Below, in pieces: positions 10,196 through 50,397 of a stretch of DNA of 64,000 nucleotides. The DNA lies in assembly GCA_016185525.1 (NCBI GenBank), contig JACPNK010000006.1, positions 115,440-179,439 on the forward strand, given 5' to 3'. The first letter of the stretch is position 1. Each line of letters opens with the position of its first letter. The translations under genes and the position numbers were made by a program. The notes beneath the pieces were generated by a model. It did no database searches and was not told where the DNA came from. It saw nothing but the letters and a program-made list of their open reading frames with translations. Source of the DNA: Candidatus Yanofskybacteria bacterium (GTDB lineage Bacteria > Patescibacteriota > Minisyncoccia > 2-02-FULL-40-12 > IGHO2-12-FULL-4).

Positions 10196-10211
10196 AGTAA
10201 AAAAGTAACTA

Positions 10212-10288
10212 CAGATTTGCGTGTATGCCTCTTTTTTGCGTCGGACTGTCGCCGCCGAACTGCAAAAGAGGCACACACGCCAAATCTG
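10212..10288. repeat. palindromic repeat element (family 2), copy 1
   Basis: ~24-bp near-perfect inverted stems enclose a core ttgcgtcggactgtcgccgccgaactgca; a second copy lies at 29548..29629. Confidence 0.8.
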
Positions 10289-10307
10289 TTATAATTTAAG
10301 CCGTTAT

Positions 10308-11669
10308 CTATATATTACGTGCTAAATTTTTAAATGATGTGCTGTCTTCATCAAAAAACAACTCGACAATTCCAGTAGGTCCGTTTCTGTGTTTTTCAAT
10401 CATAATTTCTGCTATGCCCTTTTTTTCTGATTCTTTTTTAATCTTGTCTTCCCGATAGATCAGCAAAACCACGTCGGCGTCTTGTTCAATACTGCCGGAA
10501 GACCTTAAGTCCGATAGTTTTGGCCTTTGATCTGTGCGCATTTCTGAACTTCTTGAAAGTTGGGAAATGGCCAAGATTGGTATGTTTAGCTCTTTGGCAA
10601 GGGCTTTTAAGTTTCTGGAAATTTCGGTGATTTGCTGGACCTCGCTGTCGATTGCCCGAGTCGGACGTATGAGTTGCAGATAGTCAACTACCAGCAAGCC
10701 TAAGCCGTGTTCGGCTTGAAGCCTTCGGGTCATTGCTCTCATCTGCAATATTGTGGGCGAGGGGATGTCTTCAATAAAAATCGGCGCTTGAGCGAGACGG
10801 TCAAGCGCGGCGGCGATCTTTTCAAAGTCGTTGCCGTCGCCTTCCGAGGAAAGTTTGCCGGTTCTCAATTTCCATAAATTGATATTGGCTTCGGAGGCAA
10901 TCAAGCGGTCAACGATTTGTTCTTTGGCCATTTCTATGCTGAATATTCCTACCGGGACTTTTTCATGCAAAGCGACATGTTTTACAATATCGAGAGCCAA
11001 GCTGGTTTTACCTAAGGACGGTCTGGCGGCCAAGACAATAAGGTCTGATTTCTGCAAACCGGCAAGATAGTTATCCAGGTCATAAAATCCGGTTGAGTAG
11101 CCTCTTAACTTTCCGTCGCCTTTGTGCAGGCGGTCCATTCTTTCAAAAGCCTCTTTTATCAGGGGGCCGCCAATATGGGCAAAAGAAGGTAGGCTTGATT
11201 TTTGAGAGATTGAAAAAAGTCTTTGTTCGGCTTGGTCTAAAATGTTTTCTATCTCTTCATCTTCCTGATAACCCAAACCAATTATGTGGTGGGCGGAATC
11301 AATCAGGTCGCGCAGGATTTTTTTTCTTTCCACAATTTTTGCGTAATGGATTATGTGGGAAGCGGTAGGCACGGAGTTGATTAGTGAAGTTAAATAACCG
11401 GCGCCGCCTATAGTTTCCAACTCTCCGGCTTCTTCCAGTTTGTTGGATAAGCTTAAAAGGTCAATCGGCTGTCTTTTGTCAAAAAGTTCTGACATGGCGG
11501 AAAAAACGATCTGGTGGGCTCGGCTGTAGAAATCTTCCGGCCGCAAGAAATCAGCAATTTTATTAATCGCTTCTTTGTCAATCAGAATGGAACCTAACGT
11601 TGACCTTTCGGCTTCTATGTTTTGCGGCGGTAAAGAATCTTTGGGAATCATAGCGCTCCAATTATACAA
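10308..11669 (-). CDS. dnaB: replicative DNA helicase DnaB
   Basis: N-terminal DnaB domain plus RecA-like domain with Walker A GKT (ARPSLGKTSLAL); no intein. Confidence 0.9.
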   Translation of the reverse strand: MYNWSAMIPKDSLPPQNIEAERSTLGSILIDKEAINKIADFLRPEDFYSRAHQIVFSAMSELFDKRQPIDLLSLSNKLEEAGELETIGGAGYLTSLINSVPTASHIIHYAKIVERKKILRDLIDSAHHIIGLGYQEDEEIENILDQAEQRLFSISQKSSLPSFAHIGGPLIKEAFERMDRLHKGDGKLRGYSTGFYDLDNYLAGLQKSDLIVLAARPSLGKTSLALDIVKHVALHEKVPVGIFSIEMAKEQIVDRLIASEANINLWKLRTGKLSSEGDGNDFEKIAAALDRLAQAPIFIEDIPSPTILQMRAMTRRLQAEHGLGLLVVDYLQLIRPTRAIDSEVQQITEISRNLKALAKELNIPILAISQLSRSSEMRTDQRPKLSDLRSSGSIEQDADVVLLIYREDKIKKESEKKGIAEIMIEKHRNGPTGIVELFFDEDSTSFKNLARNI

Positions 11670-11725: not shown

Positions 11726-13117
11726 CTATCTTGGTTTGACCAAGGGTCCATGCTCCGTGTCTTCTATTTGGTAGCCTTTTGAACTTATTTGCCGGCGCAG
11801 GTCGTCGGCTTCGGAGTAGCGCTTGTCTCGTCGCAGTTTCTCGCGCGTATCAATCATATCCAAGATCTCATTCGGGGTCTTTTTTGTTTTTCTGGGGATT
11901 ATGCCCAAAATGTTGTTGAACTCTTCAAAAAGTTTTTTTATTTTTTTGGCTGATTTTTTATCAACTTTATTTTCAGCCAACAATGGATTTAACTCTTTTA
12001 TCATTTTAAAAATAGCGGCAATGGCTTGAGGAGTGTTAAAATCGTCGTCCATAGCTTCCAAGAATTCCTTCCTTGTTTCAAGCAAGATTTCCCCTGCGCC
12101 ACTGAGAAGTTGAACTTCTAAGCGGCGGATATTTGATAATTTGCGCAGAAATTCTTCGATTCTTTGGATACCGGCCCAAGAAGATTTTATCGCTTCTTCG
12201 CGATAATCAATAGGCGAACGGTAGTGAGTGGACAAAACAAGAAAACGCAAAGCCTCTGCGGAATATTTTTTAAGAGTGTCTCTGATGGTTATAAAGTTGC
12301 CAAGAGATTTGGACATTTTCTGGCCGTTGATAGTCAGAAAACCGGTGTGGAGCCAATACTTTACAAAAGGTTTCTTGCCGGAAATTGACTCCATTTGGGC
12401 TATTTCCGCTTCGTGGTGAGGGAAAATTAAATCTCTGGCTCCGCCGTGCAGATCGTACTGCTCCCCGAAATGCTTTTCGGTAATTGCCGTGTCTTCAATG
12501 TGCCAGCCGGGCCGCCCTTCTCCCAGTTCTGTTTTCCATTTTGGTTCTCCCGGTTTTGAAAACTTCCACAAGTTAAAATCGCCCTTGTTCTTTTTATTGA
12601 CGCTTTCGTCTATGCGACTTACGGCATCTTCCGCGCTTTCGGTTGTGCGACCGGAAAGCTTGCCATATTCCGGAAATTTTTTTAAGTCAAAGTAAAAACC
12701 GTCACTAGGAATTTCGTAAGCAAAGCCTTTTTCCTTCAGCCTTTTAACTTGCGATACGATTTGTTTGATATACTTTGTCGCCGGAGCGTATTTATAGACA
12801 CTGGTAATGCCAAGCGATTTTACATCTTGGTAGTAAGCTTTTTCAAATTCTTTAGCCAGAGTCAGCGGTTCTTTGTTTTCCTGTTTGGCTTTCGCGATTA
12901 TTTTATCTTCTATGTCGGTAATGTTCTGCAGGTATTTAACCCTGTAGCCTTTGTATTTGAGGTATTTGGCGATGACGTCAAAAGAAATATAAGTACGCGC
13001 GTGGCCGATATGCGAGTAATCATAAACCGTCGGTCCGCAGACAAACATATTCACCTTTTTGCCTTGGCGCGGCACAAATTCTTCTTTTTGTCTGGTTAGA
13101 GAATTATAGATTTGCAT
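11726..13117 (-). CDS. cysS: cysteinyl-tRNA synthetase
   Basis: HIGH (HIGHARTY) and KMSKS motifs with class I CysRS architecture. Confidence 0.9.
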   Translation of the reverse strand: MQIYNSLTRQKEEFVPRQGKKVNMFVCGPTVYDYSHIGHARTYISFDVIAKYLKYKGYRVKYLQNITDIEDKIIAKAKQENKEPLTLAKEFEKAYYQDVKSLGITSVYKYAPATKYIKQIVSQVKRLKEKGFAYEIPSDGFYFDLKKFPEYGKLSGRTTESAEDAVSRIDESVNKKNKGDFNLWKFSKPGEPKWKTELGEGRPGWHIEDTAITEKHFGEQYDLHGGARDLIFPHHEAEIAQMESISGKKPFVKYWLHTGFLTINGQKMSKSLGNFITIRDTLKKYSAEALRFLVLSTHYRSPIDYREEAIKSSWAGIQRIEEFLRKLSNIRRLEVQLLSGAGEILLETRKEFLEAMDDDFNTPQAIAAIFKMIKELNPLLAENKVDKKSAKKIKKLFEEFNNILGIIPRKTKKTPNEILDMIDTREKLRRDKRYSEADDLRRQISSKGYQIEDTEHGPLVKPR

Positions 13118-14377: not shown

Positions 14378-15121
14378 ATGACGGACAGGCAGAAACAAAT
14401 TTTAGAGGAGCTGATCAGGGAGTATGTGAAAGGCGCTGAACCCGTCAGCTCTAATTTTTTGGCAGGAAAATGTGCCCGCCTGCCGGACGGGCAGGGTTTT
14501 GACTGCAGTCCAGCGACAATAAGGGCGGAGATGTTAAATTTGGAAAAGGAGGGTTTTCTTGCCCAGCCACACACTTCAGCCGGCCGTATTCCGACCGATA
14601 AGGCCTACAGATATTTTGTTGATTATCTTTTGAAGGAGAAAGAAGAGATTTTGCCGGAGAAAGATCGTAAAGCGATAGACAAAACTATTTCTTCTGCCTC
14701 GCGCGATCCGCATGCTTTAAGTTCCGGTTTGGCCAAGACTATGGCCGGTCTAACTGACGATTTTGTAATTAGCGGCATTCCTGATACGGGGGAGTTTTTC
14801 CGTGTTGGTTTTTCCAATATCTTTGAGTTGCCTGAATTTCAGGAAACAGAAGATGTGCTTGGACTGGGAAATATGTTTGATGAATTTGAAAACTATTTTG
14901 AATCATTTTTTGATAAGATAGAAAGAAATGAACTGCTCGTTTCTATAGGCAGAGAGAATCCGACCGGCGAAGTAAGCAACGAGACGGTAATTATCGCCAG
15001 CTATCCGTTGCCTATGGGTTATGAGGGCATATCGGCTGTAATCGGTCCAATGAGAATGGCTTACGACAGAAATATGGCCTTATTAAAATATGTAGCAAAA
15101 AGGATGAACCAATTAAGATAA
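14378..15121 (+). CDS. hrcA: heat-inducible transcription repressor HrcA (short form)
   Basis: N-terminus matches HrcA (EPVSS, SPATIR, EKEGFLAQPHTSAGRIPT). Confidence 0.85.
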   Translation: MTDRQKQILEELIREYVKGAEPVSSNFLAGKCARLPDGQGFDCSPATIRAEMLNLEKEGFLAQPHTSAGRIPTDKAYRYFVDYLLKEKEEILPEKDRKAIDKTISSASRDPHALSSGLAKTMAGLTDDFVISGIPDTGEFFRVGFSNIFELPEFQETEDVLGLGNMFDEFENYFESFFDKIERNELLVSIGRENPTGEVSNETVIIASYPLPMGYEGISAVIGPMRMAYDRNMALLKYVAKRMNQLR

Positions 15122-15172
15122 CTGTTACAAGTTGTAGGTTATAGGTTTTATGTCTCCCAGAAAATATAAAAA

Positions 15173-15200
15173 ACTTATAACTTATAACTTATAACTTATA
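15173..15200 (+). repeat. perfect heptanucleotide tandem repeat (acttata)x4 abutting the clpC start codon
   Basis: Four exact 7-mers end 3 nt before the ATG at 15204; degenerate inverted copies (aggttat) lie at 15137-15150. Confidence 0.9.
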
Positions 15201-15203
15201 ACA

Positions 15204-25469: not shown

Positions 25470-25610
25470 AAAAATTAATCTAATTTCTAATTAACCTAAT
25501 TGACCTAAACAATACCCAACTGCCAAGTTCCAAAAAGGTTTTAGTTGTTGGTCATTGTGGATTTGGGATTTATTTAGAATAATTAGAGCAATTAGAAATT
25601 AGAAATTTCT
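25470..25610. repeat. AT-rich repeated intergenic element (copy 1) with aattaga/ctaatt motifs
   Basis: Shares a 14-nt identical block (aattaacctaatt) and caattagaa motifs with 27270..27402. Confidence 0.7.
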
Positions 25611-26339: not shown

Positions 26340-27269
26340 TTAGACTTTTTCCAAAAGTCTACCGTAACCGTTTATAAACTCTTTGGTGTTTAGCACTTTT
26401 CCTCCTTCAAGCTGGAGTTTTAACAGCTCTAAATAATCCTTAGCGCAAGGCATAATCAAAAGACCGTTTTTTTGATAAATTTTTCCACTTAGAAGTTCTC
26501 CACTTAGAAGTTCAACTTCTAAGTGACTTTTATGAATTTTGCAGTCAATAATTTTTAATATTTTATTTTGCCACTTAAACCATATTCCCGGCCATTTGTG
26601 AAAGGCGCGAAATTGGTTGTAAATTTCTTCGGCTGTTTTGTGCCAGTTTATTTTGCCGTCTTCTTTGGTAATAATTTTAGTGAAGGTGGCTTGCGACTCG
26701 TCTTGCGGTTGAGGTGTGGTTTTTCCACTAAGATATTTCGGTAATAACTTAAGTAATAAGCCAGCACCCTTTTTCACCAGACGCATTTTTAGGTCATAGT
26801 ATTTGTCATCCGGCGCGATTGGTTCTTGTTCCATTCCTAAGACGGGTCCGTGGTCAACTTTTTCGTCCAGCACAAAGACCGTTACGCCGGTCTCTTTTTC
26901 GCCGTTAAGCAGGGCGTACTGGATGGGGGACGGGCCGCGGTATTTCGGTAACAGCGAACCGTGGATATTGAGTAAACCATGTTTCGGTAGGTGCAAAAAC
27001 CGTTCAGGAATAATTTTTCCGTAATCTACAACAATTCCGACTGTGGATTGTTTGGCAATTTCTTCAATGCGAGCCAAAGACGGGTCATCTTTTTTAAAAT
27101 TTTCCGGCTGAAGCACTTCAATATTGTGAGATAGGGCTAACTGCTCGGCGGGTGTTGCCGTTTGGCTGTCCGGCGCGGTTACCACAGCCACAACAGTATA
27201 GTCAGCTTGAATCAGCGCTTCCAATACGGGCGTGGCAAAATCCGAAGTGCCAAAGAAAATAGTTTTCAT
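26340..27269 (-). CDS. fmt: methionyl-tRNA formyltransferase
   Basis: N-terminal formyltransferase domain (IFFGTSDFA, HGSLLPKYRG) and C-terminal domain; downstream of def. Confidence 0.9.
   Translation of the reverse strand: MKTIFFGTSDFATPVLEALIQADYTVVAVVTAPDSQTATPAEQLALSHNIEVLQPENFKKDDPSLARIEEIAKQSTVGIVVDYGKIIPERFLHLPKHGLLNIHGSLLPKYRGPSPIQYALLNGEKETGVTVFVLDEKVDHGPVLGMEQEPIAPDDKYYDLKMRLVKKGAGLLLKLLPKYLSGKTTPQPQDESQATFTKIITKEDGKINWHKTAEEIYNQFRAFHKWPGIWFKWQNKILKIIDCKIHKSHLEVELLSGELLSGKIYQKNGLLIMPCAKDYLELLKLQLEGGKVLNTKEFINGYGRLLEKV
26486..26525. repeat. REP-like palindrome (RAYT-associated family) in-frame inside fmt
   Basis: 25-bp perfect palindrome cacttagaagttcaacttctaagtg plus adjacent half-site direct repeat ccacttagaagtt; encodes LEVELLSGELLSGK. 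Confidence 0.85.
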
Positions 27270-27402
27270 AAATTAACCTAATTATTCTAATTTTTAATTT
27301 TTCTAATCAATTTCTAATATTTAATACTCTCAATTCCCAAAAAATTCTAGAAATTAGATTTTGGTTTGTTGTGGTTTGATTAGGTTAATTAGTGTAATTA
27401 GA
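27270..27402. repeat. AT-rich repeated intergenic element (copy 2)
   Basis: Homologous to 25470..25610, same orientation, between def and fmt. Confidence 0.7.
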
Positions 27403-27864
27403 TCAATTAGAATAATTTTTACTGACTTTTTCTTTTATCAAGACTCCGTTTAAGTGGTCAGTTTCGTGCTGAAGCACTCTTGCCAGGAAACCCCTGGCTT
27501 TTATTTTTATTTTGTTGCCGTTTTCGTCCAGTGCTTTTATTTTTATTTTTTTAGCTCTTGCAACAGATGCAAAATATTCCGGCAGAGAGAGACATCCTTC
27601 TTCCATTTCGGTTTTATCTTTTGAGTATTCGGTAATTTCCGGATTGATGTAAGCATCTGGCACTTTATTTTCTTCCGCCAGTTTTTTATCAATAACAAAA
27701 ATTGCCAAGTTTTGGCCGACTTGATTTGCCGCCAAGCCGACGCCAAGCGACTCAACCATCTGCTTTTTCATATTCGAAATCAACCCTCGTATTTCCGGAG
27801 TTATCTCCTTGACTTCTTTTAGTTTTTGTGATAGTATTTTACTTGGATGTTTTACAATTTGCAT
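27403..27864 (-). CDS. def: peptide deformylase
   Basis: GVGLAANQ, EGCLS and HETDH motifs. Confidence 0.9.
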   Translation of the reverse strand: MQIVKHPSKILSQKLKEVKEITPEIRGLISNMKKQMVESLGVGLAANQVGQNLAIFVIDKKLAEENKVPDAYINPEITEYSKDKTEMEEGCLSLPEYFASVARAKKIKIKALDENGNKIKIKARGFLARVLQHETDHLNGVLIKEKVSKNYSN

Positions 27865-27888
27865 ATCGCATTAGGATGGGAGGTATTT

Positions 27889-28083
27889 ATGGGTTTTTTT
27901 ACTTTATTCCTTTATATTTTGGGCATTGCTTTTATTTTTGGTGTGGGGGGCTTTATTTTTGAAAAAAATCAAGGTTTTACAAATAGAGAGGCAATACAAA
28001 CCTTCTCTGGTGTATTTTGGGCTGCCTTATTTTTGCTTTGTTTTGTGCTACTTGTGTCCTTTCTGTGTTCTTATTTTATTTGA
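27889..28083 (+). CDS. small two-TM membrane protein (hypothetical)
   Basis: GGGAGG RBS 6 nt upstream of the ATG at 27889; the track ORF starts earlier at 27847 and overlaps the def start. Confidence 0.35.
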   Translation: MGFFTLFLYILGIAFIFGVGGFIFEKNQGFTNREAIQTFSGVFWAALFLLCFVLLVSFLCSYFI

Positions 28084-28101: not shown

Positions 28102-29967
28102 CTAAACAACTTCTATTTGCCATCCGCTTGGCACTAAGCGTAACAACTCGTTGCGCCGCGCCCCGTAGTGAGCCGAAGGTTCTACTATGGGGTTTTTTAC
28201 TACTTTTAAAACAATTTCTTGCGTATGTAGTCCTTTTTCTTTTAATCCTGCATTTGGTCCGATAATTTCAATTTCTTTCCCATAATTCTTAATTCCTAAT
28301 TCATGATTCAACCTTTCTCTTACTATTTCCGCCTCTCTTTCCGCTGTTCTCGAATCTTGGTGGCGGAAGATTAATTTAATAAGTTCGGCAAATGGGGGAT
28401 AGCTGAATTCTTTTCTAGCCTCAAGCTCTTCTTCGTAAAAACTTTTAAAGTCTTGGCTTAAAATTGTTTTTACCACTCTTGCGTCGGAATCGTAGCCTTG
28501 GATTAAGGTTTTTTCTGTCATTTGAGACAAAATAAAAACTATTCTTAAGGCTTCTTCTTCTGTTCCAAAATCAACAAAATTTAGTAAAGATTCTAAGTTT
28601 AATATACCAACTAAATCGGCTTTTAGCAAGCGCTGATAGCTCAATATTTTTTGTGTTGTCAGCAGGATTGCCGGTCCCGGATTTTTAAATTGGTCTATAA
28701 TTTTTTCTTCCTCTTTTTGCGGAGTGTCGCTGCTTAAGGCCAGTATTTTTGGCGAAGTTATATTCTGGTCTTTGAAAAACTTTACCAACTTTTCCTCGGC
28801 TTTTTCTATGCCCAAGCCCTTATATTCCAAAACTGATTTGTTGCAGTTGGGGCAGACATTTAATGTTGGCTGTATGTTTTGACAGTGATGACATTTTAAA
28901 ATTGTTTTAGGTTTTAAGTTATAAGTTGTAAGTTTAAAGGCAGTCAGGTTTCGATCGCAGTTTGGACATCGGGGAATATAGCCGCAGTTTTGGCACAGAA
29001 GATACGGGGCATAGCCTTTGCGCGGTACGAATATTATAATTTTGTTTTTTTGCTGTACCGCCGATTTCAGTTGCTCTTTAAGTTCAGCGCTGAAAATTGA
29101 AAAATTGGTATTTTTAATTTCACCGACCATGTTGGCGAATGAGATATCAACTTTTGTTTTTTGGGGCAATGTCTCTTCTCCAAATTCAAAATATGTTTCT
29201 ACTTTCGGCAAAGAATCGTTTATGATTAATTTGGCTCCGTATTCTTTGGCGGTTCGTCTGGCCAAAATGCCGGTATCGTATTTGGGGGTGTAGTCGGAAC
29301 GGTAGGCGATATTTGACTCGGCTTCCACAATTATTTCTTTGAGGTTGTTAAAAGGCAAAAACAAAGCGACTCTGGTGCCGACTATTGTTTTTATTTCTCC
29401 GTTTTTAACTCTTTGCCAAATATCAAAATATTCTTTGGTTGGAGTACTGCTTGAAAGAAAAACGGGATTTTCTTTTTTGTATTTCTCCAAGAAGTGTTCG
29501 GCCATTATTTTTTCGGGAGTTAAAATAAGTTTTTGTCCTTGGTTACTGAGGTCTGGCGAGTATGCCTCTTCTTTGCGTCGGACTTGTCGCCGACGAACTG
29601 CAGAAGAGGCATACTCGCCAGACCTCTTAAGCAAAAATGCCGGTAACATGGCTTTAACGCACAAACCCAGTGGCGCAAAATATTTTACCGAGAGCCACAA
29701 AGCGATATTTAGCTGATGTTGGTTGAGAACAGGCTGTTCTTTTAGAATTTTGCCTATTGGTTTCAGCTCAAAATCAGCCTCTTTTTTAAGCTTGATTTTT
29801 AACTCCGCCAGACTTTTTGAAGCCAACACGACTGCGGTTATCTTTCTTTTTCTTATCTCAACTTCAACCAAAGCGCCTGCTGGTAGCTTTTCTTCATAAA
29901 AATAACTCAAGATCTGGTCCTGATTTCTGGGAATTGCGGTTAGGGGGATAACCTCAAGAATATACAT
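28102..29967 (-). CDS. priA: primosomal protein N' (PriA) with degenerate helicase motifs
   Basis: N-terminal 3'-DNA-binding domain, a Cys-rich zinc-binding insert (CQNCGY, CPNCD, CHHCQ, CPNC) and a C-terminal domain. Walker A reads SSSTPTKE and DEAH reads EAES, so both are degenerate. Carries two in-frame repeat insertions. Confidence 0.75.
   Translation of the reverse strand: MYILEVIPLTAIPRNQDQILSYFYEEKLPAGALVEVEIRKRKITAVVLASKSLAELKIKLKKEADFELKPIGKILKEQPVLNQHQLNIALWLSVKYFAPLGLCVKAMLPAFLLKRSGEYASSAVRRRQVRRKEEAYSPDLSNQGQKLILTPEKIMAEHFLEKYKKENPVFLSSSTPTKEYFDIWQRVKNGEIKTIVGTRVALFLPFNNLKEIIVEAESNIAYRSDYTPKYDTGILARRTAKEYGAKLIINDSLPKVETYFEFGEETLPQKTKVDISFANMVGEIKNTNFSIFSAELKEQLKSAVQQKNKIIIFVPRKGYAPYLLCQNCGYIPRCPNCDRNLTAFKLTTYNLKPKTILKCHHCQNIQPTLNVCPNCNKSVLEYKGLGIEKAEEKLVKFFKDQNITSPKILALSSDTPQKEEEKIIDQFKNPGPAILLTTQKILSYQRLLKADLVGILNLESLLNFVDFGTEEEALRIVFILSQMTEKTLIQGYDSDARVVKTILSQDFKSFYEEELEARKEFSYPPFAELIKLIFRHQDSRTAEREAEIVRERLNHELGIKNYGKEIEIIGPNAGLKEKGLHTQEIVLKVVKNPIVEPSAHYGARRNELLRLVPSGWQIEVV
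28909..28940. repeat. gttttaagttataagtt dispersed repeat (family 3) in-frame in priA
   Basis: 17 of 17 nt identical to 50151..50167; degenerate agttata heptamers; encodes KLTTYNLKPKT. Confidence 0.75.
29548..29629. repeat. palindromic repeat element (family 2), copy 2, in-frame in priA
   Basis: Perfect 24-bp inverted stems (gaggtctggcgagtatgcctcttc / gaagaggcatactcgccagacctc) enclose the same core as 10212..10288. Confidence 0.85.
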
Positions 29968-33833: not shown

Positions 33834-33847
33834 ATTTCTTAAAAATC

Positions 33848-33883
33848 TACTGAGAAGCTACTGAGAAGTTGAACTTATCAGTA
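33848..33883. repeat. REP palindrome with half-site direct repeat, 5' flank of the RAYT gene
   Basis: tactgagaag x2 half-sites, then the 25-bp palindrome tactgagaagttgaacttatcagta. Confidence 0.85.
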
Positions 33884-33905
33884 GAACATGTTAAATTTCT
33901 GAAAT

Positions 33906-34550
33906 ATGCATAAAGAATATTTTACCAATGGGGAATTTTACCATGTGTATAATCGCGGAAACAATAAGCGAAAAATTTTTTTGGATCAAAGAGACTTTAA
34001 AAGATTTTTTCAAAGCATACGGGAATTCAATTCGGAAGAACCGATTGGTAGTATATATCTTAATTCTTTTAAGGACGCCTCGCTTAGAAGTTCAACTTCT
34101 AAGTTAGTTGATTTTGTTTGTTTTTGTTTAAATCCAAATCATTATCATTTTATTCTCAAGCAACTAAAAGAAAGGGGTATTGAAAAGTTTTTACATAGAC
34201 TTGGCACGGGTTATACTAAATATTTTAATGAAAAACATAAATGCAGTGGCTCTCTTTTTCAGGGCAGGTATAAAGCGATACACTTAAACTCTAATGAATA
34301 CCTACTACATCTTAGTGCCTATGTGAATTTAAATTATGAAGTTCACCAACTGAGAAGTTCAACTTATCAGTGTGATTATAAATCTAGTTGGGCAGAATAT
34401 CAAAACAACTTGGTAGAAAGTATATGTAATAAAGACATTGTACTTTCTCAGTTTAGAAACTTTGATAAGTATAGGGAATTTGCAGTTAATGCTATTCAAA
34501 TAAGTAGGACCAAAAAAGATATGGAAAAGTTGTTATTGGAAGAGGTCTGA
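33906..34550 (+). CDS. REP-associated tyrosine transposase (RAYT; IS200-like HuH Y1 transposase, TnpA_REP)
   Basis: YHVYNRGNNKRKIF N-terminus, HuH motif NHYHFIL, GRYKA and Y..N C-terminal tyrosine region are typical of COG1943 RAYTs; the gene is flanked by inverted REPs. Confidence 0.8.
   Translation: MHKEYFTNGEFYHVYNRGNNKRKIFLDQRDFKRFFQSIREFNSEEPIGSIYLNSFKDASLRSSTSKLVDFVCFCLNPNHYHFILKQLKERGIEKFLHRLGTGYTKYFNEKHKCSGSLFQGRYKAIHLNSNEYLLHLSAYVNLNYEVHQLRSSTYQCDYKSSWAEYQNNLVESICNKDIVLSQFRNFDKYREFAVNAIQISRTKKDMEKLLLEEV
34083..34103. repeat. REP palindrome inside the RAYT coding sequence, copy 1 (in-frame)
   Basis: cttagaagttcaacttctaag encoding LRSSTSK. Confidence 0.85.
34350..34370. repeat. REP palindrome inside the RAYT coding sequence, copy 2 (in-frame)
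   Basis: ctgagaagttcaacttatcag encoding LRSSTYQ. Confidence 0.8.
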
Positions 34551-34557
34551 CTCTGAT

Positions 34558-34645
34558 CACTGATAAGTCACTGATAAGTTGAACTTCTCAGTAAAAACTT
34601 CTCAGTAAAAACTTCTCAGTAAACTTCTCAGTAAATTTCTCAGTA
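34558..34645. repeat. REP palindrome plus tandem half-site array, 3' flank of the RAYT gene
   Basis: cactgataagt x2, palindrome cactgataagttgaacttctcagta (inverted relative to the 5' REP), then (aa)aacttctcagta x4 tandem. Confidence 0.9.
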
Positions 34646-34749
34646 AAAGGTTTCGAACTATTACGCGGCAGTGCATCGTGTATTTGACTACTTGCAGGAT
34701 ATCTGCTAGGGTCGATTTGCTTTTTAATAATTAGTGAAAGGATAGAAAA

Positions 34750-46704: not shown

Positions 46705-48285
46705 CTAGTAAGCGCCTTCAAATTTTGAAGGCTTTTTTAATGACAAAATTATAGCCGAATTCACGGCAAATATTAAAAATGCCCGTTCGTCAAAAAGCGC
46801 GGCATCGGTTAAAGAATAGAACAAAACCCAAATCGTGTAAAGAACAAAAGAGGCGCTGTAAACTTTATTGAAGATGTTGGTATTGCTCCAAAAAACAGCC
46901 AGCCCGCTTTTTAGTATTAATAAAAGAGTGCCTAAAACGGCCACTAATCCCAAAATTCCAATTTCGGCTGCTATTGTAAGATATAAGTTGTGGGCGGAAG
47001 ATCCGGCTTTGGCATATTCGGTTTCCTGTGACAAAACGACAGGATAGTTGCCTATTCCCACTCCCAACAAAGGTTTTTTGATAATTGAAGCAACCGAAGC
47101 TTTCCATATGGCTATGCGACCATTGTTTGACGTTTCTTCTAGGTCCAGTATTGAGCGTATTCGTTTAGCCAAGATTTCACTGCCGGTTTTTTTAATTTGG
47201 AATTGGTCTGAACCAAAAATTGGATAGGCCACCGAAAAAAGCATTGGGAACAAAACAAAAAACAGAGAAATGTATTTAAGAATATTTTTGTCAGATATAC
47301 TTTTGGAGAGTTTCAGTAAAAAAGGCAGTGTTACTATCGGTCCGAGAACTGCCAACCAGATTCCTCTGGTTCCGCTCAAGATGACCAGTAGAAAAAAAAT
47401 CGGTATTAGAATAACCAGCAAGGAAGCCCTGGTCTTAATCAGTTTTTTGAGTTGGGAAATCTGTCCGGTTTGAAAAACTTTTGTGAGGGAAAAGGCCAGA
47501 AGAGAGGGTATCGCCAGAAGCAAGAATATTGGAAAAGAATGCGAGTCGGGCAGGGTTGAAAAAATCCGCAAAGAAAGCTGGGGGCCGAAATAAGCAAACC
47601 AAGTATTTGCTTCTTGGGCCGTTTGCGACCAGGCAGAACCATAAAATCCCAGCTGGACCGAACCGGCCCAAAAGTCCATGAACTCATAAATTGAAACCAT
47701 GTAGGCGCTGATTAATTGCGCAACCGCAACAACAGCAACGATGACTCCGGAAAGTAAAATGTTTTTGACTAAATTTCTGGTTGTTTCCGGCTTTTTACGG
47801 ACCAAATCGTAAATGACAAAACCAATGAGGCTTAAGTTTGTAAAATATATTATTCTCTTTATCCCGCTGACTAAATCGTCGGCCGCTATCAGAGAGAATA
47901 AAGAAAACACTAAAACGACAAGGGCGAAGAAAGACAGCTGGTATTCCTGAAAATTGATGTTAAACGCCACCTCCCCGGAGAGTTTTTTTATTTGAACCAG
48001 TTTTTTTTCAGCAAAAAACCACTTTAAAAAAATAAGGCCTGAAGCAATCCGCCAGATATTAAAAGAGTCGAAGTATGGCGTTAAAGGAATTGCCACGAAA
48101 ATCGGCACGGATCTGACAAAAAAAGCGGTTGCTGTTTCCAGATCAGCCCACAAAACAAAAAAACCGGTCAAAATGGCAAGACCCAATATCGTATTTCTGG
48201 GAATTACTCCAAAGGCAACCAAAAAAACAACTACGACCTCAATTAAAAAAACTATATTGACGGGTTTTTTCAGCGTATTGAACAT
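46705..48285 (-). CDS. O-antigen ligase/polymerase-like polytopic membrane protein (Wzy_C family)
   Basis: 526 aa with >10 TM helices and a large periplasmic loop, within a glycosyltransferase cluster. Confidence 0.6.
   Translation of the reverse strand: MFNTLKKPVNIVFLIEVVVVFLVAFGVIPRNTILGLAILTGFFVLWADLETATAFFVRSVPIFVAIPLTPYFDSFNIWRIASGLIFLKWFFAEKKLVQIKKLSGEVAFNINFQEYQLSFFALVVLVFSLFSLIAADDLVSGIKRIIYFTNLSLIGFVIYDLVRKKPETTRNLVKNILLSGVIVAVVAVAQLISAYMVSIYEFMDFWAGSVQLGFYGSAWSQTAQEANTWFAYFGPQLSLRIFSTLPDSHSFPIFLLLAIPSLLAFSLTKVFQTGQISQLKKLIKTRASLLVILIPIFFLLVILSGTRGIWLAVLGPIVTLPFLLKLSKSISDKNILKYISLFFVLFPMLFSVAYPIFGSDQFQIKKTGSEILAKRIRSILDLEETSNNGRIAIWKASVASIIKKPLLGVGIGNYPVVLSQETEYAKAGSSAHNLYLTIAAEIGILGLVAVLGTLLLILKSGLAVFWSNTNIFNKVYSASFVLYTIWVLFYSLTDAALFDERAFLIFAVNSAIILSLKKPSKFEGAY
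46714..46738 (+). terminator. rho-independent terminator
   Basis: gccttcaaattttgaaggc plus tttttt; overlaps the 3' codons of the convergent minus-strand gene. Confidence 0.6.
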
Positions 48286-49397
48286 AGTTCTTTGAAGATT
48301 TGTATCAGTTTTTCAGTATGTTTTTCCCAGTTGAATTTTGATGTTATTCGCGGACTGTTCAGAATAACTTCTTCCATTTTCTGTCTGTTGTTTAACGCCC
48401 GTTCTATTGCCGACGCTATCTGCTGCGGGTCGGTCTCGTCTTGGACGAAAAAAGCGCTGCCTTCGTAAATTTCTTTGTTCAAATCGTTATTCTTAACCAG
48501 AGGCGGTGTGCCCAAGGCGAGAGCTTCAAGCGGAGGCAGTCCCATGGCTTCGGAGGTGGAAAGGTAAATAAACAGCTTGGCTCCGGCAATTAAAAATTTC
48601 AAATCTTCATCTTTGTCTATATAATCATAATGCATAACCCGCTGACCGCCTAATCTTTTATTGGTTTCTTGAATAAGACTTTTTAAAATCGGCGGATTGT
48701 ATTTGTCTTGGCCGACCAAAATTAGTTTCAGGTCTGGAAATTTATCCGCAAGTATTTCAAAAGCTTGAATTGTTTCTTTGGCTCTTCTGCGGGGTAAGGC
48801 TTGGCCGACATAGAGTAAATAGGTTCTAAGTTTTAGGTTATAGGTTATAGGCTTATTTGGTTGGTCTATGCCGAGATAATTCACCATTATTCTTTCGGGG
48901 GGGATTTTGAAGAGTTGAGAAATTTCTTTTTTGGCGGATTCAGTGAAAGTTGTGATTTTGGTGGCTCTTTTTGCCGCCCAGTTGCTGAAAAGCAGATAAC
49001 TTATGCGGTACTTCCAGGGATGGGTGCCGAATTTATATTCGTAGTAAACATCGTTGGTTAAAACCACTAAAGACTTACCCAAGAAAAAAAGAGGCAGCAT
49101 AAAACCGGGGAAAAAGGTTGCGTTAATTTTGTCGCGCAGGCAAGCCAAAGGCAAAAGAACGTGAAAGAATATATTATAAGATGGGCGCAGAAAAGGCAGT
49201 TTTAAAACCTTTTTTACGAAGATCGGATTGTTGAGATAGGGGTCGTCCGGGACGAACCCTTTGAAGTATAAGTAAAATTTGAACTCTTTTGCGAGTTCAG
49301 ATTTTTTTGATATCTCTTCCAGTATCTTTGATAAATGTCTGCCTATCCCCCATCTTTTATTTTCCAAATTGTGGCACTCTATGGCAATTTTATACAT
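48270..49397 (-). CDS. family 4 (GT1-fold) glycosyltransferase
   Basis: C-terminal EAMGLPPLEALALGTPPL GT-B signature; the track ORF runs to 49490, and the internal Met at 49397 avoids overlap. Confidence 0.75.
   Translation of the reverse strand: MYKIAIECHNLENKRWGIGRHLSKILEEISKKSELAKEFKFYLYFKGFVPDDPYLNNPIFVKKVLKLPFLRPSYNIFFHVLLPLACLRDKINATFFPGFMLPLFFLGKSLVVLTNDVYYEYKFGTHPWKYRISYLLFSNWAAKRATKITTFTESAKKEISQLFKIPPERIMVNYLGIDQPNKPITYNLKLRTYLLYVGQALPRRRAKETIQAFEILADKFPDLKLILVGQDKYNPPILKSLIQETNKRLGGQRVMHYDYIDKDEDLKFLIAGAKLFIYLSTSEAMGLPPLEALALGTPPLVKNNDLNKEIYEGSAFFVQDETDPQQIASAIERALNNRQKMEEVILNSPRITSKFNWEKHTEKLIQIFKELCSIR
48828..48856. repeat. family 3 repeat (agttttaggttataggttatagg) in-frame in the GT4 gene
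   Basis: Encodes KPITYNLKLRTY. Confidence 0.7.
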
Positions 49398-49440
49398 AAG
49401 TCGTTGTGGAATTAGAGGAGCTATCGCTACATAATTTTGG

Positions 49441-50397
49441 TTATTTTGGAACAATCGCTCCGAATTTATTTTTATAAAAATCCAACACACCTTCTATGAT
49501 GGCATCGGCGGCGGGTGCTTTAGACGGCATAACAAACATTTTAACCAAATTTTTCAAAACGATATAACCTGACCAGAAAATCAAAAAAGGCTTAACTGTC
49601 CAAGGCGCGTTTAAGCTGTTGAATATCAGGGCGTTTCTCGAGTGGTAGCGTAAAACAATAGGCGAACCGAGTTTTTTTGTGGTTGCGGAAACTTTGTGGT
49701 GGACTATGGCTTCCGGGACAATTTTCAGCTCATAGCCGGCTAACTGGGCTCTTATATTTAAATCCGCATCCTCAAAATACAGAAAATAAATTTCGTCAAA
49801 ACCTTTGATTTTTTCCAGCACCTCTTTTTTAACTAGCATAGCCGCGCCGATTACATATTCTTTTGGTTTAAGGTATTTTTCGGCTGGTGGTGTGCTGGAA
49901 TGAGTTAGCTCTGTTTTCAGCCAAGAGATTTTACCAAAGTAAGCTGTTTTCTGGCCTTCTTTGATTGCTGGTCCGATTATGCCGACTGTTGGGTCGGTCT
50001 CTGCTGCGGCGATCAGTTTTTTTAAAACATCCGGCTCAACCACGGTGTCGTTGTTTAAAATAAAAATACAATCGGCTCCTTTTTCTAGGGCATATTTTAT
50101 ACCAACATTGTTTCCGCCGGCGTAGCCCAGGTTGGAGGGGTTTGTTATAAGTTTTAAGTTATAAGTTTTAGGATTAACTTGACTTTCTGTATAACTTTTG
50201 ATATTATTAACTTCAGCTTCGTTTGAAGCGTTGTCCACTACGACAATTCTAAAGTTTGGATAATCTAGTTCTTTTAAAGATTCCAAACACTCCAAGGTGT
50301 CTTGGGAGTTGTTGTATTGGAGAACGATTATGAAAACAGAAGGAGGAAACATGATTGGTGCTGTTTTATTTATTTTTGTTTGCATTATTTTGCTCAA
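49441..50397 (-). CDS. family 2 glycosyltransferase
   Basis: FIIVLQYNNSQDT...VVVDNAS GT-A signature. Confidence 0.75.
   Translation of the reverse strand: MSKIMQTKINKTAPIMFPPSVFIIVLQYNNSQDTLECLESLKELDYPNFRIVVVDNASNEAEVNNIKSYTESQVNPKTYNLKLITNPSNLGYAGGNNVGIKYALEKGADCIFILNNDTVVEPDVLKKLIAAAETDPTVGIIGPAIKEGQKTAYFGKISWLKTELTHSSTPPAEKYLKPKEYVIGAAMLVKKEVLEKIKGFDEIYFLYFEDADLNIRAQLAGYELKIVPEAIVHHKVSATTKKLGSPIVLRYHSRNALIFNSLNAPWTVKPFLIFWSGYIVLKNLVKMFVMPSKAPAADAIIEGVLDFYKNKFGAIVPK
50144..50173. repeat. family 3 repeat (gttataagttttaagttataagttttagg) in-frame in the GT2 gene
   Basis: Encodes NPKTYNLKLITN. Confidence 0.75.

Follow-up and report, generated by a model that had tools for sequence, protein, structure and literature searches.

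Can a PriA protein that has lost the motor of a helicase still serve in replication restart, or is its gene a relic? The question is raised by an open reading frame (ORF) at positions 28102 to 29967, on the minus strand, of a 64,000-nucleotide stretch of the genome of a Candidatus Yanofskybacteria bacterium (GenBank assembly GCA_016185525.1, contig JACPNK010000006.1); the whole stretch is referred to below as the window. An earlier note on this DNA had described the 621-amino-acid (aa) product as a PriA homologue with degenerate ATPase motifs and in-frame repeats, and had taken the gene to be either rapidly evolving or a nonfunctional relic. Judged from its sequence evolution, the gene is a conserved functional PriA orthologue under strong purifying selection, in which only three small repeat-bearing loops evolve fast. 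We consider it probable that it is the orthologous PriA of Yanofskybacteria turned pseudohelicase, which would bind DNA and partner proteins as a scaffold and carry its repeats as passengers.

Identity and domain organization of the PriA homologue

The protein is identical to an NCBI entry named "primosomal protein N'" from a Candidatus Yanofskybacteria metagenome-assembled genome (MAG). It matched the NCBIfam equivalog TIGR00595, "replication restart helicase PriA," with 254 bits, above the trusted cutoff of 230.35, and scored far under the cutoffs of the subfamily models PRK05580 and PRK14873. A phmmer search against PDB sequences returned PriA chains only (E ~3e-40). Pfam recognized a Helicase_C fragment and the 3' DNA-binding domain (3'BD; PF17764), and the matches to PriA_C and Zn_ribbon_PriA were weak. 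An AlphaFold2 model, built from an alignment of 37 members of the clade described below, reached a mean predicted local distance difference test (pLDDT) score of 86.2 and a predicted template-modeling (pTM) score of 0.84, with low confidence confined to residues 59 to 66, the linker at residues 115 to 142 (pLDDT <50), and residues 595 to 598. When this model was compared with the PDB by Foldseek, the best match was Escherichia coli PriA 8fak_H (E 3.7e-42, template-modeling score 0.80), and the next eight matches were PriA chains as well, including 6dcr, 4nl4, 6dgd, and 4nl8. The overall PriA fold is kept in the model, with two RecA-like lobes, a cysteine-rich insert within lobe 2, plus the C-terminal domain (CTD). 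Since the profile, PDB, model, and Foldseek matches all point to PriA, the ORF encodes a PriA homologue, and the N-terminal 3'BD named in the earlier note was found as well. The gene and its parts are as follows.

28102..29967, minus strand: priA orthologue, predicted motor-less PriA (pseudohelicase); intact ORF of 621 aa (TIGR00595, phmmer, AlphaFold2 model, Foldseek)
29641..29937, minus strand: 3'BD, aa 11 to 109 (PF17764, E 1.4e-15, 57 bits versus a cutoff of 22.7)
29158..29538, minus strand: RecA-like lobe 1 remnant, aa 144 to 270, beginning at the motif Ia strand LILTPE (alignments, DSSP of the model)
29278..29304, minus strand: equivalent of the aromatic-rich loop, YRSDYTPKY (alignment invariants)
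28843..28995, minus strand: cysteine-rich region with four CxxC pairs, aa 325 to 375 (alignments)
28483..28818, minus strand: RecA-like lobe 2, C-terminal part, aa 384 to 495, with the motif V and VI remnants (alignments)
28105..28482, minus strand: CTD, aa 496 to 621 (PF18074 weak, 19.3 bits, under the cutoff; folds confidently and lies within the PriA structural match)

A Cys4 zinc-binding insert had been proposed for this protein. The cysteine-rich insert itself was confirmed, but the count of four cysteines was not: the region holds four CxxC pairs (C325/328, C334/337, C359/362, and C372/375), each of them invariant or conserved to at least 90% among the 37 clade members, and exactly four CxxC occur in 141 of 144 representative relatives. 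Because there are eight cysteine ligands instead of four, two zinc sites are predicted. Over the 37 sequences, whose identity goes down to 30%, the eight cysteines and the residues of the 3'BD are invariant or nearly so. In E. coli PriA, the aromatic-rich loop after motif II touches the fork junction (PMC5175346). Its equivalent here contains Y230, the nearly invariant counterpart of E. coli Y335, and an invariant proline, P228, at the position of W333.

Loss of the helicase motifs

The protein was aligned residue by residue with Klebsiella pneumoniae PriA, which placed residues 11 to 121 of the query on residues 27 to 126 and residues 144 to 558 on residues 261 to 676; the alignment with E. 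coli 8fak resumes at query residue 145, which corresponds to residue 247. Some 135 residues of full-length PriA are thus without an equivalent in the query, covering the winged-helix (WH) domain and the β1/P-loop/α1 segment of lobe 1, including K230. A linker of ~25 to 30 residues stands in their place, and DSSP assignment of the AlphaFold2 model likewise found lobe 1 without its first strand, P-loop, and helix. The WH domain is also missing from P0045, P0057, and P0078, three short PriA proteins of the Candidate Phyla Radiation (CPR) with canonical motifs, and so it is not universal in PriA. Two stretches of lobe 1 are central to the question of catalytic motifs.

29431..29454, minus strand: SSSTPTKE (aa 172 to 179), not a P-loop; aligns to HSGLNDSER of K. 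pneumoniae PriA, downstream of motif Ia
29314..29328, minus strand: motif II remnant VEAES (aa 214 to 218), aligned with IDEEH of K. pneumoniae PriA

The first of these had been taken for a degenerate Walker A, an assignment that the alignment overturns, the true P-loop being deleted; the second, EAES in place of DEEH, had been read correctly. In the multiple alignment, motif III has changed from GSATP to NDSLP, motif V from GTQMxxKGxD to TTQKILSYQR with loss of KGxD, and motif VI from QxxGRxGR to LSQMTEK with loss of the arginine fingers. A search of the whole 621-aa protein for a GK[ST] or DE[EA]H string found none, and the intact copy elsewhere in the protein for which the earlier note had allowed is therefore absent. 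Altogether, motifs I, II, III, V, and VI are unrecognizable or deleted, and the protein is predicted to be dead as an ATPase and as a helicase.

The protein might nonetheless still be an NTPase, through a noncanonical site or through a P-loop that a partner provides in trans. For E. coli PriA, a further, weaker site for nucleotides has been suggested and was never located (PMC5778457), and in the window protein what is left of the two lobes shows strong conservation. With five motifs absent, the β1/P-loop/α1 segment physically missing, and neither searched string present, however, we regard this explanation as very unlikely.

Selection on priA and conservation of its neighborhood

Selection was estimated by the Nei-Gojobori method from the DNA of seven orthologues (69 to 74% identity, independent assemblies) together with the window, that is, from eight sequences in 28 pairs. 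Nonsynonymous divergence (dN) was 0.13 to 0.22 and synonymous divergence (dS) 0.9 to 2.6, giving dN/dS ratios of 0.07 to 0.175, which are approximate because dS is saturated; the raw proportions were 0.12 to 0.19 for nonsynonymous sites (pN) versus 0.54 to 0.73 for synonymous sites (pS). By region, dN/dS was as follows.

3'BD: 0.083
Lobe 1 remnant: 0.093
Cysteine-rich region: 0.084
Lobe 2, two parts: 0.106 and 0.124 (C-terminal part, 0.124)
CTD: 0.174

The linker, alone among the regions, is near neutral, with a pN of 0.57.

These values bear on the suggestion that the gene is a decaying pseudogene whose frame has stayed open by chance. Such a relic would accord with the disappearance of all ATPase motifs, the deletion of one segment, and the presence of three repeat or indel sites in one gene. 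On the other hand, dN/dS stays at 0.07 to 0.17 overall and in every domain, the degenerate lobes included; eight independent assemblies each hold an intact orthologue of full length; the eight cysteines and the 3'BD residues are invariant, and the model folds confidently; and the motifs are missing from 162 of 188 aligned relatives (see below), mostly from separate 50%-identity clusters. Because dN/dS is low in every domain, the motif-less architecture recurs in these 162 proteins, and the gene order is kept, we reject the relic as highly improbable. Rapid evolution of the gene as a whole, the other explanation offered earlier, is likewise at odds with the low ratios among the eight orthologues.

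The gene order of the locus is M23 peptidase-gltX followed by a divergent priA-def-fmt-ABC transporter, and it is kept in relatives at 35 to 74% identity. The arrangement priA-def-fmt is frequent in bacteria. The synteny also speaks to a technical explanation, in which chimeric or collapsed MAG sequence made the deletion and the repeat junctions during assembly or binning. The source is indeed a MAG, and assemblies typically break at repeats. Samples and assemblers independent of each other (JGI, ENA, NCBI, and Logan) nevertheless yielded the same architecture, Walker A deletion included, with the neighborhood kept, and the hairpin element described below lies at one site in four orthologues of 72 to 74% aa identity. 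We give such an artefact a negligible chance.

Between priA and def, on the opposite strand, lies a 78-aa ORF (window positions 27847 to 28083, plus strand), which, judged by eye, is hydrophobic and probably has two transmembrane helices. Opposite-strand genes are also called between priA and def in other loci, with 69 to 77 aa in L005, L006, L007, and L041 and 48 aa in L008. These small ORFs may encode a conserved small membrane protein.

Distribution and phylogeny of motor-less PriA proteins

Is the loss peculiar to this genome? A homology search recovered a block of PriA-like proteins of 595 to 661 aa that align end to end with the query at 28 to 76% identity; none of these relatives had a DEAD or ResIII Pfam match, a Walker A, or a DEEH. 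A profile made from the 37 clade members was then searched against 1.8 billion cluster representatives, the best 150 matches all scoring >498 bits, and 188 relatives were aligned by MAFFT and scored for motifs I, II, and VI in the aligned columns. In this sample, which is biased to the best matches of a profile of dead proteins, 162 relatives lacked the Walker A GKT, the DExH, and the motif VI arginines, 18 were canonical, and 8 were intermediate. The degeneracy that the earlier note had proposed to look for in other CPR PriA proteins is therefore widespread among these relatives. Some intermediates have motifs I and II and a damaged motif VI (GDASSGKT/DEEH/QAVGRINR), and others have DEEH alone. 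Deletion of the Walker A columns is seen in 28 proteins, among them that of the window and the seven closest to it; the remaining dead proteins have a degenerate stretch at these columns (e.g., IKFARTKNLLNHYKLYEPLI versus LLHGVTGSGKTEVYIQLA).

In a neighbor-joining tree, the 162 dead proteins and six of the intermediates formed one clade with zero canonical members. Intermediates were basal within it, and its nearest neighbors were the short canonical CPR PriA proteins. Among 35 bootstrap replicates, no canonical protein descended from the common ancestor of all dead proteins in 24, and no more than three did so in 31. Taxon names were available for few clusters; dead-clade members so named came from Yanofskybacteria, Falkowbacteria, and Parcubacteria-group and Patescibacteria-group bacteria, and one canonical neighbor came from Torokbacteria. 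On the tree and the aligned motifs, the motor was apparently lost once, long ago, and seemingly stepwise, within Parcubacteria. In the PriA literature available to us on the Candidate Phyla Radiation, Patescibacteria, and Parcubacteria, we found no account of a motor-less clade.

The tree and the synteny also bear on the possibility that a PriA-derived protein has taken up a new role outside restart, such as the binding of DNA structures or regulation, with restart left to a canonical PriA encoded at another locus of the genome or to some other system there. The motor loss goes far beyond that in any characterized PriA, the W333 equivalent is lost, and 64 kb of the genome were seen, all of which would suit such a change. 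We hold it to be unlikely all the same: the priA-def-fmt position is conserved across the clade; the best-conserved parts (3'BD, cysteine-rich region, and CTD) are restart-specific modules in E. coli; and the placement of the canonical short CPR PriA proteins nearest in the tree, with part-degenerate proteins basal, is as decay in place predicts.

Proposed role and comparison with known PriA proteins

If the protein is a PriA turned pseudohelicase, as we prefer to read it, the parts retained for recognition of DNA and partners would be the 3'BD, most of the two lobes, some of the aromatic-rich loop, the region with two zinc sites, and the CTD. At abandoned forks and D-loops, the protein would bind, without ATP, the fork junction and the nascent leading strand at its 3' end. 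The bound protein would then be a landing platform that places DnaB on the lagging-strand template, directly or via an adaptor. Unwinding of the nascent lagging strand, where needed, would fall to other enzymes, or such forks would not be restarted by this route. We consider this mechanism the most likely one; it is taken from the precedent of two motor-dead proteins, E. coli PriA K230R and Deinococcus radiodurans PriA.

E. coli PriA K230R has no ATPase, helicase, or translocase activity and supports restart both in vivo and in vitro, helicase activity in E. coli being needed only for the PriA-PriC route (PMC5778457). The K230R, K230A, and K230D proteins (priA300) resemble the window protein in that a motor-dead PriA still assembles the primosome and the scaffold needs no ATP; priA300, however, is an engineered single substitution in a complete 732-aa protein that has a WH domain and works via PriB, DnaT, and DnaC. 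D. radiodurans PriA, when purified, showed neither ATPase nor helicase activity, bound single-stranded DNA (ssDNA), fork DNA, and DnaB, and was read as a restart scaffold (PMC4504706). It shares with the window protein that it is a natural orthologue with motifs I and II off consensus, and the scaffold logic proposed here is the same. The two differ in lineage (Deinococcus-Thermus versus Parcubacteria/Patescibacteria) and in degree: the Deinococcus-Thermus motifs are recognizable (GKT to GRT), whereas here all are unrecognizable, and the P-loop segment is deleted in the Yanofskybacteria subclade. By these two precedents (PMC5778457, PMC4504706), the suggestion that the protein acts solely in primosome assembly, made in the earlier note, would be the best reading of its predicted loss of activity.

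With canonical PriA of E. coli and K. pneumoniae (4NL4, 6DGD, and 8FAK), the window protein has in common the overall fold, the 3'BD, two lobes, a two-zinc insert in lobe 2, and the CTD; it differs in the absence of the WH domain, of β1/P-loop/α1, and of the catalytic motifs, and is ~110 residues shorter. The helicase motifs of PriA have been called conserved across bacteria, with Deinococcus as the sole named exception (PMC5778457). Because the nearest neighbors in our tree, which contained no Deinococcus sequence, are canonical CPR PriA proteins, the motor loss is apparently independent of that in Deinococcus-Thermus. The protein would thus belong to a known kind, the PriA pseudohelicase, of which one lineage has been characterized; new would be the degree of loss, the lineage, and the apparently independent origin.

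Several points weigh against this interpretation. Here, the binding of ATP and of DNA and the interaction with DnaB are deduced from the sequence. The data cover 64 kb of genome, and a second, canonical priA could sit elsewhere. The proline at the W333 equivalent may make the fork-junction contacts unlike those of E. coli PriA. In addition, the tree is a neighbor-joining tree with moderate bootstrap values, and the sampling bias and the saturation of dS noted above apply to the counts and ratios.

If the interpretation is true, these proteins are a second natural PriA pseudohelicase clade beside Deinococcus, far larger and more extreme, and what PriA cannot do without is its scaffold function. 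A protein without WH domain, P-loop, and catalytic motifs would then be a natural minimal PriA for dissecting ATP-independent fork recognition and DnaB recruitment, and its existence would prompt the question by what means ssDNA of the lagging strand becomes exposed at gap-less forks in ultra-small CPR cells. Since the TIGR00595 cutoff was passed (254 versus 230 bits), annotation pipelines can name a motor-less protein "replication restart helicase PriA," a name that overstates the predicted activity of such proteins.

A hairpin element in the linker

What, then, is the sequence that stands in place of the P-loop? The disordered linker comes from a palindromic element whose position coincides with the low-confidence stretch of the model and with the site of the P-loop deletion. 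A second copy is present in the window, and further copies were found in other genomes.

29548..29626, no strand assigned: 79-nucleotide (nt) hairpin element encoding RSGEYASSAVRRRQVRRKEEAYSPDL (aa 115 to 140); 25-nt perfect arms, 29-nt conserved loop, in frame
10211..10289, no strand assigned: second copy in the window, between dnaB (10308 to 11669) and recR
Hairpin-bearing loci: L001, L003, L005, L009, L010, L012, L015, L021, L023 to L025, L033, and L034

For the inverted repeat at 29548 to 29626, the chance expectation was 0.00, and none was found in 100 shuffles; folded as RNA, it reaches -63.4 kcal/mol (z -11.8). The covariance model R1 scored it at 101.6 bits on the plus strand, that is, antisense to priA. 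A search of the 64-kb window with R1, filters off, returned the two known copies alone, the remaining matches being generic hairpins of at most 21 bits. When GTDB was scanned by loop pattern, full elements were found in several Parcubacteria/Paceibacterota genomes, with five in one Yanofskybacteria MAG. Loop-pattern matches outside the CPR (Acidobacteriota, Pseudomonas, Streptomyces, and others) were taken as chance because they are without arms and lie in GC-rich DNA.

Together, the window (n = 2) and the fetched Parcubacteria/Paceibacterota loci gave 15 distinct copies, with folding energies of -45 to -63 kcal/mol (z -7.8 to -11.8). The loop and inner stem are invariant across all of them, CCTCTTTTTTGCGTCGGACT(N)GTCGCCGNCGAACTGCAAAAGAGG, and the outer arms vary yet remain complementary within each copy: 86.5% of cells are paired, compared to 72% in shuffles (0 of 500 as high) and 41 to 49% with the partner slid, and 21 of 31 pairs are altered on both sides. 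The element is mostly intergenic, but it also occurs in frame in an isoleucyl-tRNA synthetase (IleRS)-like ORF of 1147 aa (L034) and in a glycosyltransferase gene (L033). A search of Rfam found no match at the gathering threshold for the window and none at E<=1 for five loci. Target-site duplications flanking the 15 aligned copies were not seen by eye; no systematic search for them was made. On these sequences, the copies appear to make up an undescribed family of ~79-nt hairpin elements in Parcubacteria/Paceibacterota.

Within priA, the element is present in four orthologues (the window, L001, L005, and L009), which share one site and have 72 to 74% aa identity with the window protein. Relative to priA, the loop runs antisense in three of them (the window, L001, and L009) and in the sense direction in L005 (L005:2342-2420), and both orientations are open, without stops. 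Since the arms of L005 are nearly the same while the 29-nt loop is reversed, the sequences suggest a flip in place between the arms, not a second insertion. At the same linker site, L003, L006, and L008 carry a 13-nt palindrome, AAGGTCSGACCTT (peptide RSDL), once or twice, and L007 has almost nothing; a search of the window for this palindrome found none.

The Rickettsia palindromic elements (RPEs; Ogata et al. 2000) are, by the summary in PMC10969869, multi-copy sequences that lie in intergenic DNA and in frame in housekeeping genes that are left intact. The likeness lies in multi-copy palindromes inserted in frame in unrelated genes, here priA, the IleRS-like gene, and the glycosyltransferase gene. 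The present element differs in length (~79 nt versus ~150 bp), in its conserved loop and inner stem with variable but complementary outer arms, in its host, a free-living or epibiotic CPR lineage instead of Rickettsia, and in that one orthologue has the loop reversed. If the likeness holds, the repeats are a CPR counterpart to the RPEs, and comparison of orthologues maps insertion-tolerant loops.

Taken together, these results allow a wider picture, which we put forward tentatively and would not yet back over its alternatives. The motor-less protein may be the sole PriA of a large monophyletic part of Parcubacteria/Patescibacteria, with ATP-independent restart as the rule there. Decay would have run from the motif VI arginines to the P-loop, then to DEEH, and would have ended with physical removal of the P-loop unit. 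A previously undescribed hairpin element with an invariant loop and variable complementary arms, readable both ways and able to flip in place, would have colonized the scar of this deletion and further loops of essential genes that tolerate insertions.

Heptamer arrays and other variable sites

Besides the linker, two sites in priA vary between close orthologues.

28898..28939, no strand assigned: heptamer array, AACTTAN on the coding strand, lengthening the protein by 7 aa (within LTTYNLKPKTI) between the second and third zinc-ligand pairs (Tandem Repeats Finder, period 7, 5.1 copies, in frame)
28159..28203, minus strand: third variable indel site, VVKNPIVEPSAHYGA (aa 589 to 603), unique to this genome (orthologue alignment)

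The heptamer array and the hairpin are both far beyond chance, bearing out the earlier claim that priA holds in-frame copies of two repeat families. Five of the seven close orthologues lack the heptamer insert, and L005 and L008 gain seven residues there from other heptamers. The third site was considered as a further hairpin repeat and ruled out (fold z -0.04, no further copy in the window). In the model, each of the three variable sites is a loop of low confidence or at the surface, and we read the repeats in priA as tolerated passengers rather than signs of gene decay.

Taken at 28904 to 28939, the period-7 array of priA has relatives that are read in frame within two neighboring glycosyltransferase genes, at 48819 to 48856 (ORF 48270 to 49490, minus strand) and at 50144 to 50170 (ORF 49441 to 50397, minus strand), and the three intragenic copies all translate as TYNLK. 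Since a perfect (AACTTAT)n gives TAA in every frame, intragenic arrays are necessarily imperfect. The orthologous glycosyltransferase gene of L033 bears the 79-nt hairpin (L033:244-322) at the loop (…NYLGVDQ|insert|LYVGQ…) where the window gene bears heptamers (~48819 to 48856); different repeats here share one insertion-tolerant loop of this glycosyltransferase.

An inverted pair of heptamer arrays, at 15124 to 15150 (GTTATAG type) and 15172 to 15202 (AACTTAT, 4.4 copies), fills the gap between an ORF with its end at 15121, hrcA-like by its translation, and the start codon (ATG, 15204) of a Clp ATPase gene. The pair could form a hairpin terminator or an operator.

The window holds other repeats as well. 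Those of a third family, the palindrome CACTTAGAAGTTGAACTTCTAAGTG, occur in frame in a variable loop of fmt at 26484 to 26529 (fmt at 26340 to 27269, minus strand; peptide HLEVELLSGELLSG), at 12098 to 12128, and as a cluster of direct and inverted copies at 33847 to 34648. Arrays and inverted repeats of 9-mers (CTAATTAAC / TAATTAGAA) are found in the intergenic DNA flanking fmt and def, at 25479 to 25603, 27278 to 27307, and 27360 to 27417.

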